Source: Escherichia coli (GTDB taxonomy: Bacteria > Pseudomonadota > Gammaproteobacteria > Enterobacterales > Enterobacteriaceae). From it: a stretch of 64,000 nucleotides of DNA. Each line of letters begins with the position of its first letter. Position 1 is the stretch's first letter. The DNA is taken from NCBI RefSeq assembly GCF_003018255.1, contig NZ_CP027440.1. One strand, given 5' to 3'. Shown here piece after piece: positions 1 to 3,000 of the stretch. Made by a program: the position numbers.

Positions 1-3000
1 ATATTTCGTGTTTATTATGTTATAATGATATTTGAATGTATAATTATACTCCTGCATCATTTTACACTCGCCAGAATTTAATTTTTTTTGTATTTCTAGG
101 CTCATTAAGTTTTTAATCTCTTCACCATCAAAAAATGGCGACATATCTTCATTAATCCCATAAATATTATAATAATGATTAAGTGTATTTCCTTCTACGG
201 TTGCAGCAATCCATGTAGTATAATCATCTACTTTAATAGGGAATTTTTTCTTGGATAGTTCATTTTTTAAGCATGAGGCAATTTTATCTGCATCTTCTTT
301 GTTTGATAAAATATCATCAATTTTATTATCACCGAACTCAGTTGCAATTATCTTTACAAAGATCAGCAGAATAATAAACATTAATGCTGCTCCTGTTTTT
401 TTTATTGCTCCTAATATTTTGTTTCCTGTCATCTTGCAAATCTAACATAAAATTTAATGAGTCTTATTAATAAATTTAATTTCTTATGAGTTGTCAACCT
501 TCCATCAAGCAAACCGTGATCTAACAGCATGACTGTCTGCTTGATATGTGTTGTCGTCAACACAGTACAGTCCTTGAATACATATAACAAATTTGTTATG
601 TTGATACCTATGAACTACACTATCGAATACTACAGTGAAGAGGTCCGGCTGGAAGTCGATCAGCTTCCATTGAGTATGCGTGTCCGATACAAACATCTCA
701 TTGAACGTATGAAGGTATACGGCAGCAATCTCGGAGAACCTCATACCAGCGCCTTTGGTGATGGGCTTTTCGAACTCAGAATTAAAGGCAACGATGGGAT
801 TGCACGTGTTTTTTACTGCACTCTGACAGGGAAACGCATCATTATGCTGCATAGTTTCATTAAGAAAACGCAGAAAACACCGCCAGCCGAACGCAAAAAA
901 GCTGAAGCCAGAATGAAGGAGGTTAAGCATGACTGGTAAACGCATTACACCTACCATGACACACGACGAAATGGCAGCCAAATGGATGGAGGATCCGGCT
1001 TTCAAAGCAGAATACGACGCCATCGCCGACGAATTCGCACTACTTGATGAAATGCTGGCAGCACGAAAAGAAGCAGGCTTAACCCAGGCTGAAGTTGCTG
1101 AACGTATGGGAACAAAAGCGACTGCGATCACCAGAATGGAAAGCAATCTTGCATCAGGTATAAGCGGCCCATCATTTGCCACACTGAAAAAATTCGCCCG
1201 TGCTACAGGGAAAAAACTCCAGATCCGCTTCGTTTAACTCTCCACTACCGCGCCGTCATTCTGGCGGCGCTTTACCCCAGAGAAATATCAATCACCGGAT
1301 TGCCACATCCCACTCCGGCTCCTGCCATCTCAAATCCGGTGAATCATTTCTCACCGGAATAACCATTACGTCCTTTTCCCTCCGCTCCCTTTCTATCGCC
1401 ATCACAGCCAATGCTGCAACCATGATGTATTTTTGTTCGTCGGTTCCTGTTTCATAACGACGCATGAGGGTAAACTCGGGGCGATCAGTAACCTCAATGA
1501 TTTCGTTAATTTCTTTAATTTCGAGAGGAATATCCATGAGTTTAGTCTCCTTTGACATTACATGCCCACACTGTTTAAAAGAGCGAGCTGTTATTGAGGC
1601 ATTTGCCGAAAAACAAATTGAAAAAACACCTCTTTTTAACGTCGCTTTTGTATGCAGAAGTTGTCATCGAGGAGGTGTTGCTATTGTTGAAATCCCATCA
1701 GACCACTATCACGGCCCCATGGCGGAAAGCCAGAAAAAAGACCTCGATATTCTGATTTCAGGAAATAGCCAGTACCGTTTCCGCAAGATCTATCCTGCGG
1801 TCAAAAAAATTACCGCACCAGAATATACGCCCCCGGTTGCAGACCGTACTTTTGTTGAGGCAAAAGAGGATTTACAGAGGAGGCGGTACGACACAGTGGT
1901 AATTCTTTGTCGCAGAGTCCTCGATATCTCCACGAAAAAACTGCTCGGCGATGAAGCAGGAAAAGAATCGCTGTCGCAACGTATTCAGATGATTTACAAA
2001 AAAGGGCTGATCACTGAACAGATGAAGGAATGGGCTCATATTGTACGAATTGATGCCAATAAAGCAGTTCATACAGATGAAGTTTTCACACCAATTGAGG
2101 CAAGCCAGATCCTGAGTTTTACCGAAATGTTTTTAGTCTACGCCTTCACTCTGCCTGCAATGGTGGCAGCCAGACGTGAACAAAAAAGATCAGATTCAGC
2201 CTCTATATGAATCACTTTTCTGAACACGTAAGCCCCCGTCATTCACGACGGGGAGAACATCAATCCCTCTGCACTCCCCCGCCAGAATGCCAGCACACGC
2301 TGCATCGTTTCGCTGTTACGGCACTCGCGACAAATTATGTTGTAGCGTCTGTCGTAGCGCCGGATTTCCCCATCAGGTAATGCCCGGATAAGACCAGGGT
2401 CAATAACAACCGGTTTCTTTGCCTTTGCTCTCGAGAGTTTTTTGCGGGCATTTTGCCAGTCCTTACGCGCCTGATCAGACGGGAATAAACCATAACCTGA
2501 GTCGAATATAGCGCCACTGACAACCAGTTCTCTGGACAAACGTCTGACAGCTGTCTTGCTGACTCCGGTTTCAGTAGCCAGTTGCCTGAACGTTCCCCGA
2601 CCATTCAGGCGCACGAGCTCCACAATACGTGCCTTCAGTTCTTCCCGCTGTTCGGGTGTAAATACTTTTGCCATAAGCTCTCCAGTTATCACTTTTCCGA
2701 TGCAATACTGCTGGATGAATCGGTAATCTGCATGACAAGTTCCCGGTGTTTATTCAGCTCACGTAGTGCAGCACAGACACGCTCCCACTTCTGGACCTGT
2801 TTTTTGGCGCGACGAAGTTCACGACTGGCGGCCCGTAGAGGTGGAAGGGTCACTGCACCAGCATATTTTTCGGTGAACGACGGAACATCCCGGATAAACT
2901 CATCTGTACAGGCCTTTGCCGTGCCCTCTGACATCAACGGAAAACGATTCAGTTCGTCGCCTGACGCGCTGTTTTCTGCTTCGTGTGTGATATTCTCATC

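Follow-up and report, generated by a model that had tools for sequence, protein, structure and literature searches.

The superinfection-exclusion and related moron (accessory) proteins are small membrane or periplasmic proteins, dispensable and encoded as cargo of atypical composition in the accessory slots of temperate phages. The fold that is most relevant to the present study is known from two bacterial proteins: PA3611 of Pseudomonas aeruginosa (PDB 3npd), which is of the 'quorum-sensing-regulated virulence factor' type, and AspS (GspS-beta/YghG; PDB 4ftf, 5zdh), the pilotin of Vibrio-type type II secretion systems, an outer-membrane lipoprotein encoded with or for the GspD secretin. AspS has the element order a1-b1b2b3-a2a3-b4b5-a4, and a disulfide links its C-terminal helix with the a2 region, as it does in PA3611 (PMC3542185); within a hydrophobic crevice AspS binds the S-domain helix at the C-terminus of GspD (PMC3542185; complex 5zdh). 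Here, we analyzed a stretch of 64,000 nucleotides from Escherichia coli (contig NZ_CP027440.1 of assembly GCF_003018255.1; hereafter the window), at whose left edge an earlier note, made from the sequence alone, had described a truncated low-GC gene for a membrane-anchored protein. This gene, here named A, belongs to a three-gene prophage cassette together with a second gene, B, and a gene of the DUF805 family, and its product is predicted to be an exported protein with the PA3611/AspS fold. In its context the cassette is like P22 SieA, HK97 gp15, phi80 Cor, T5 Llp, T4 Imm/Sp and lambda Bor/Lom, to none of which it is related by sequence or fold. It is prophage-borne, dispensable and predicted to be located in the envelope, as in the superinfection-exclusion class, but differs from these cases in having three co-inherited genes instead of one. 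PMC11436027 and PMC10883804 provide a partial basis for this comparison.

Over positions 1-15579, the window matches the left arm of Shigella phage 75/02 Stx (bases 1-15586) with 99.6% identity and phage POCJ13 with 99.4% identity; both are Shiga toxin 1 (Stx1) phages of the Sepvirinae. Beyond the left (integrase) end of the prophage follows ordinary E. coli/Shigella chromosome (~99% identical; ynfH, clcB, mlc, ynfL, bioD region). Thus, on the basis of the identity to 75/02 Stx and the chromosomal flank, the window begins inside a prophage. From its ATG at position 432, the gene A frame runs on the minus strand through 144 codons without a stop, and its translation starts MTGNKILGAIKKTGAALMFIILLIFVKIIATEF. 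The remaining five frames across these 432 bases contain 8-20 stops apiece, and the frame was kept open in none of 20,000 sequence shuffles, a result that is informative given how often stop codons occur in AT-rich DNA. The open frame pointed out in the earlier note is therefore real. The segment has a GC content of 27.5% and a GC content at third codon positions (GC3) of 23.6%, compared with 49.9% GC for the whole window, and it is the lowest-GC of all 432-bp stretches of the window. Relative to the open reading frames (ORFs) of at least 150 codons in the window (n=56), it lies 8.1 standard deviations lower in GC and 4.6 lower in GC3. Its composition is indeed far below that of its surroundings, as had been noticed, and sets it apart as foreign from phage backbone and host alike.

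Gene A is missing from ORF lists because its frame runs off the window edge. In relatives whose DNA is 99.1-99.6% identical, the frame continues for 14 codons, ending in NDLVIIMTKSNCPQ, and then meets a stop, which gives a product of 158 amino acids; the idea that only the edge had kept the gene out of the ORF track was thus correct, and no nearby in-frame stop or frameshift that would make it a fragment was found in these relatives. We infer that gene A is likewise complete at 158 amino acids in the present genome. The frame continues in this way in seven E. coli chromosomes and in the phage records, and the full-length product corresponds to WP_225380620.1 (strain UCPROB-002). The window copy differs by 3 nucleotides from that of phage 75/02 Stx (with the changes Y54C and V121G) and by 5 nucleotides from that of another E. 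coli locus (L001). No relative has Cys at codon 54, where Tyr, Ser, Asn or some other residue is found instead. The Cys of the window copy would add an unpaired cysteine, the third, to an exported domain in which C123 and C156 presumably form a disulfide, and its effect may be neutral or slightly deleterious. It should be noted that the phage records begin gene A at Met18 (window position 381; KJ603229.1 15194-15619 and NC_029120.1 15206-15631), which yields 141 amino acids and loses the basic N-region. Two lysines upstream of Met18, K11 and K12, are invariant throughout the family, which makes the ATG at 432 the better start, and the gene should be annotated from this upstream ATG (158 amino acids) rather than from Met18.

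Profile searches gave a single family for protein A. Residues 1-158 matched PHROG 19308, which has no assigned function, along the whole profile (1-158; E 5e-108). No Pfam family was found at E <= 0.001, including with six aligned members, and there was no NCBIfam match above cut-off and no PADLOC family; A thus does not match a housekeeping phage gene. Weak Pfam matches to EnY2 (E 0.24) and, for single members, to T4_Spackle (E 0.067) and the RnlA DNA-binding domain (E 0.064) were judged to be chance. The family is small. A word-indexed search of 5.8 billion proteins returned two clusters, and an exhaustive search of 1.84 billion representatives returned eight proteins, two of them fragments and two repeat-protein artefacts. 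The latter two, P0008 and P0009, are large, repetitive eukaryote-like or Bacteroidota-like surface proteins matched by several short stretches, and were rejected as compositional or repeat artefacts. A profile search extended the family to 12 clusters, comprising E. coli/Shigella proteins, Salmonella enterica forms (26-29% identity) and one metagenomic relative, P0007, in which the A domain stands behind a lipoprotein signal (LASC).

The N-terminus of A, MTGNKILGAIKKTGTALMFIILLIFVKIIATEF, has no lipobox. A hydrophobic run (residues ~13-30) follows three Lys and precedes an acidic stretch, which is a positive-inside pattern. Its uninterrupted core has only ~14 residues and is followed by K-I-I-A|T, and such a short core fits an uncleaved signal anchor and a signal peptide cut after IIA30 alike. 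The single N-terminal hydrophobic segment of the earlier note therefore stands, whereas its 'membrane-anchored' label is equally matched by a cleavable Sec signal peptide. C123 and C156 occur together in all full-length enterobacterial members and are both missing in P0007. The charge pattern, this joint retention or loss of the cysteine pair, the lipobox of P0007 and the periplasmic or outer-membrane nature of the structural neighbours (see below) are four independent lines which argue that A is exported.

A single-sequence AlphaFold model of A was too poor for use (predicted local distance difference test (pLDDT) 45.6) and was replaced by an alignment-based model, which reached a pLDDT of 77.8 overall and ~90 over residues 50-158. 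A Foldseek search with this model against AFDB50 gave 717 matches at E <= 1e-3. Most of them are uncharacterized proteins in which the domain lies behind varied membrane anchors (DUF4190, RDD, zinc-ribbon, DUF4234, DUF2569, CvpA), and all structural neighbours of A are periplasmic or outer-membrane proteins. In the BFVD viral structure library no match was found at E <= 0.001, and a PDB sequence search with the profiles of A and B revealed nothing significant (5eft, E 0.43; 4onx, E 0.12). The order of elements in the model matches that of AspS. C123 lies 9 residues before b4 and C156 in a short C-terminal helix, places that correspond to those of the AspS/PA3611 disulfide, with a spacing of 33 residues compared with 37 in AspS; as the putative disulfide was not an input to modelling, the cysteine positions provide an independent check on the model. 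On this basis, we conclude that A is probably an exported protein with a periplasmic domain of the predicted PA3611/AspS fold, either anchored in the membrane or released by cleavage.

The likeness to both proteins is one of fold. PA3611 is only 15% identical to A, shows no relation at the level of hidden Markov models, and its family profile (QSregVF, Pfam) is not matched by A. Moreover, PA3611 is a chromosomal, soluble protein with a signal peptide, whereas A is phage-borne, possibly membrane-tethered and always encoded with a DUF805 gene and, outside the two loci named below, with B. In contrast to AspS, A has no lipobox, no secretin neighbour, no profile match and no PDB sequence match to 4ftf or 5zdh, and no gsp genes were present in any locus read with A. 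Thus, A falls outside the AspS family despite the common fold.

Gene B lies directly downstream of A in L001 and encodes 223 amino acids (223-244 in the family), matching PHROG 21161 at 7e-157. Like A, the protein starts with a hydrophobic segment, and it is the second predicted exported product of the cassette; it has an invariant pair of cysteines, and no Pfam, NCBIfam, PADLOC or PDB relation was found for it. Its most conserved soluble segment is the C-terminal helix, (F/M)(D/K)LI(D/N)(K/N/D)I(T/I)(S/E)T(F/L), in which L215, I216, I219 and T222 are invariant. A and B as paralogues could be rejected (nothing by BLASTP; hhalign probability 0.7%). On the opposite strand, 19 nucleotides from the stop of B, a gene for a predicted inner-membrane protein of 124 amino acids with three hydrophobic segments matches DUF805 over the full model (PF05656, positions 1-111 of 111; E 3.4e-30) and PHROG 12855 (6.5e-27), and has no PADLOC-DB v2 family. 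No terminator was called between B and DUF805 by a consensus terminator scan. PHROG 19308, 21161 and 12855 had already been catalogued, the first two without function, but neither the linkage of the cassette nor the fold of A is recorded there. The DUF805 gene is missing from the annotation of both reference Stx phage genomes, 75/02 Stx and POCJ13, in which it is intact and 99.2% identical to the E. coli copy (Table 1).

Several observations show that the three genes form a unit, most of which lies beyond the window and which the earlier note could not have revealed. In L001, positions ~6800-8560 have a GC content of 26-35%, with 45-53% on either side, which delimits a discrete unit of ~1.8 kb. 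The order of A, B and convergent DUF805 was the same in all 20 enterobacterial loci read, and B was missing in only two of them (L006 and L007), cleanly, with A 66% and DUF805 79% identical. The unit is retained across lambdoid prophages of E. coli, Shigella and Salmonella; the loci read include phages, five diverged Salmonella types, a second E. coli type and three IMG/VR contigs. Between E. coli and Salmonella, identity has fallen to 28% for A, 28% for B and 45% for DUF805, with a GC content of 27-37% in both hosts. Pairwise ratios of nonsynonymous to synonymous substitution (dN/dS) ranged over 0.2-0.4 in A, 0.2-0.5 in B and 0.07-0.2 in DUF805; in comparisons across genera, synonymous sites had reached saturation. 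Judged from these sequence comparisons, A, B and DUF805 have co-diverged under purifying selection. The cassette is rare: it was detected in 7 of 5,426 complete E. coli genomes and in 4 of 50,697 phage records (two phages), and in none of the plasmids searched.

The DNA shared by these loci has sharp boundaries. In the E. coli type it starts 98 nucleotides before A, at the point where the homology of L001 with L006 sets in (L001 8530; window position 530). In Salmonella it starts ~80 nucleotides upstream and ends just beyond the DUF805 start. This leader contains a TTGACA ~60 nucleotides before the A start in the E. coli type and ~68 nucleotides before it in Salmonella, where a GTG start is preceded by GGGAGG. 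The block is common to L006, which has restriction-modification (R-M) genes upstream, and to L001 and L017, which have a toxin-antitoxin (TA) pair, despite the unrelated upstream neighbours; in Salmonella, too, one common TTGACA block is found in loci that differ in their upstream TA pair (three different pairs). By such conservation beside unrelated neighbours, the leader belongs to the cassette, and it may serve as its promoter.

The position of the cassette also differs between phages. In the phage of the window it is part of the early-right operon, with replication genes (O-like, DnaC-like, DUF1627, DUF977/'Ren-like') on one side and an antirepressor gene and ninB on the other, and A and B have the orientation of the pR transcript. 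The second E. coli type (L016-L018, next to wrbA/yccJ) carries it in the early-left arm, flanked by ea22-like genes and int, where it again runs with the early transcript. The block of TA pair, A, B and DUF805 in L017 is 87% identical across 2.6 kb to that of L001, whose copy stands between replication and nin genes, and the presence of one block at two phage regions indicates that it has moved as a unit. In L016-L018 an extra helix-turn-helix (HTH) gene was observed beside a Gp49/HigB-like toxin gene, and B has 242 amino acids and is 52% identical (Table 1). With regard to the suggestion that A was recently acquired cargo, it is prophage accessory cargo indeed, but not recent, since the unit has diverged to the above identities with its low GC content kept. 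Low GC is accordingly a long-held trait of an old mobile phage cassette rather than a mark of recent arrival. That ~30% GC has been held for long in phages of ~50% GC argues for selection on composition (for example, H-NS silencing) over recent import.

Upstream of A, a slot always holds a divergent addiction or defence module, the family of which differs by locus. A comparison of the window with loci L004, L008, L012, L014 and L006 revealed a RelE/HigB-like toxin with an HTH protein (E. coli), a PF06296 RelE with an HTH protein (some Salmonella), PIN with PhdYeFM, ParE with an antitoxin, and an Eco57I methylase with a BsuBI/PstI endonuclease (L006). The RelE/HTH pair as a constant part of the unit could be rejected across genera, as the E. 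coli and Salmonella pairs are non-homologous and other loci carry PIN/Phd, ParE or R-M genes. Among E. coli loci, though, the TA pair accompanies the cassette. On these comparisons the slot behaves as an exchangeable addiction or defence position beside a constant cassette.

With respect to function, the cassette is an ordinary prophage moron with unusual details, namely a phage-borne pilotin-fold domain, strict linkage to DUF805 and a changing TA/R-M slot. A, B and DUF805 would act jointly at the inner membrane and in the periplasm as an accessory module. By analogy with AspS, A might use the hydrophobic groove of its fold to grip an amphipathic helix of a partner. The C-terminal helix of B would be the best candidate, its conservation making B the first candidate ligand; otherwise A could bind some envelope component, either from the host or from the incoming phage. 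The benefit would be a block of adsorption or DNA entry of superinfecting phages. Prophage cargo, envelope location and defence-type neighbours together point to envelope-level superinfection exclusion or a related defence, a reading that we put forward tentatively and consider somewhat more likely to be wrong than right. A bolder version, which we think unlikely, is that A, B and DUF805 form an unrecognised three-component envelope anti-phage system of Stx-type and Salmonella lambdoid prophages, in which a pilotin-fold protein would grip the C-terminal helix of a partner and thereby form a barrier or sensor in the periplasm, supported by a DUF805 membrane platform.

Several points weigh against the exclusion reading. 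Neither homology, phenotype nor experiment links A, B or DUF805 to the exclusion of phages. No match was obtained in PADLOC (2023) or NCBIfam, and searches of the literature on DUF805, POCJ13 and lambdoid defence hotspots yielded nothing on the function of DUF805 or on these genes. Adjacency to TA and R-M genes is guilt by association only. The alignment behind the model of A is shallow (12 sequences; effective number of sequences ~2.5). A consensus promoter scanner made no call upstream of A, where the candidate -10 elements are also weak. Finally, A and B run along early transcripts (pR in the window phage, pL in L017), so that they are perhaps expressed mainly in lytic growth and less in the lysogen.

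This last point leads to the best surviving alternative, a lytic-cycle helper function. T5 Llp masks a receptor, which saves progeny from being lost to lysing cells, and T4 Imm/Sp exclude superinfection during the lytic cycle. In a comparable manner, A and B could be delayed-early products of pR or pL that remodel the envelope during phage growth (for example, by receptor masking, superinfection exclusion in the lytic cycle or lysis tuning), with DUF805 as a lysogen counterpart silenced by convergent early transcription. The orientations agree with this, as A and B run with the early operon in both settings while the TA pair and DUF805 are opposed to it, and so do the close spacing of the B and DUF805 stops with no terminator between them and the weak Shine-Dalgarno and -10 sequences of the E. 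coli-type A. On the other hand, the cassette moves together with its conserved leader, whose perfect -35 suggests independent expression, the cassette is dispensable for nearly all lambdoid phages (see the above counts), and low GC content and TA/R-M neighbours are typical of morons expressed in the lysogen. We therefore regard such a helper role as rather improbable.

Less probable still is an abortive-infection system, in which A and B would be periplasmic sensors of phage attack (cell-wall damage or the DNA-injection machinery) and DUF805 a membrane-depolarising effector, as in RexAB or Kiwa-like systems. Three membrane proteins beside TA/R-M genes in a prophage accessory slot would suit this idea, and DUF805 is the most strongly conserved of them and is retained with A in the two loci that have no B. 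However, PADLOC gave no match, and effector and sensors on opposite strands would be unusual for a defence operon. DUF805 proteins are common chromosomal membrane proteins of a housekeeping type and are not known to be toxic.

The common fold with AspS raises the possibility, which appears slightly weaker again, of a secretin-directed or lysogenic-conversion factor. Tethered to the inner membrane or free in the periplasm, A would catch the C-terminus of a secretin (GspD-beta of type II secretion, pIV of filamentous phages, or those of type IV pili or type III secretion) and block, re-route or chaperone its assembly, thereby altering secretion, virulence or sensitivity to filamentous phages. 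Yet A has no sequence-level relation to AspS or QSregVF and no gsp or secretin gene nearby, and, having no lipobox, could not be targeted to the outer membrane. The fold occurs on many unrelated anchors, as the AFDB50 matches demonstrate, and so does not by itself imply secretin binding, and the obligate partners B and DUF805 would be left unexplained. As for the idea that gene A is no functional gene but a frame open by chance, or the decaying rest of one in AT-rich junk DNA, the 'hypothetical protein' labels, the very narrow distribution and the shorter Met18 version in phage records would fit, but the shuffling result, homologues down to 28% identity under purifying selection (dN/dS as above), the invariant K11/K12 and a confident model that matches a known fold, down to a disulfide position not given to it, effectively refute it.

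If superinfection exclusion or another envelope change proves true, the cassette would be a new multi-gene system among the means of prophage protection, present in Stx phages of Shigella and E. coli, where competition between phages shapes the spread of toxin. It would also provide a first function for the DUF805 membrane proteins, a group found widely among bacteria, as well as a second one for the PA3611/AspS fold, apart from the piloting of secretins.

Table 1. Positions of gene A, its leader and surrounding features (window coordinates unless another record is named)
Feature	Position	Strand	Basis or remark
Gene A (PHROG 19308), first 144 of 158 codons (N-terminal 91%)	1..432	-	Open frame, relatives
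Gene A, basic N-region	residues 1-12	-	
Gene A, hydrophobic signal/anchor	residues ~13-30	-	
Gene A, bulk of the predicted exported PA3611/AspS-fold domain	residues ~45-144	-	
Gene A, last 14 codons, including second conserved Cys (C156)	past window edge	-	Near-identical relatives
Gene A, codon 54 (Cys)	272	-	
Leader with putative promoter block	433..530	-	TTGACA (-35) 497->492; weak AT-rich -10 candidates ~474->467, ~35 nucleotides before ATG
RelE/ParE-family toxin gene	598-939	+	Divergent from A
HTH antitoxin gene	929-1237	+	Overlaps toxin gene; divergent from A
Small hypothetical ORF	1292-1558	-	Overlapped by DUF4145-domain gene
DUF4145-domain gene	1464-2210	+	'DNA binding protein' in phage
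Early-left prophage region	6001-10000		
Prophage left (integrase) end	~15.58 kb		Ordinary chromosome follows
DUF805 gene, 75/02 Stx (L003; NC_029120.1)	L003 3835-4209; record 16337-16708	- (L003)	Intact, unannotated
DUF805 gene, POCJ13 (KJ603229.1)	record 16325-16696		Intact, unannotated
TA + A + B + DUF805 block, second E. coli type	L016-L018 4389-7123		

Some minor features of the prophage were also observed. Rfam and tRNA scans of the whole 64 kb gave no matches and no tRNA genes. Next to the TA pair, the DUF4145-domain gene runs against the early operon; GC content dips to 38-42% in this region, which resembles a further accessory insertion, placed between the TA pair on one side and the replication genes on the other. 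A broad zone of 41-45% GC with strongly positive AT skew occupies positions 6001-10000, in the early-left part of the prophage.

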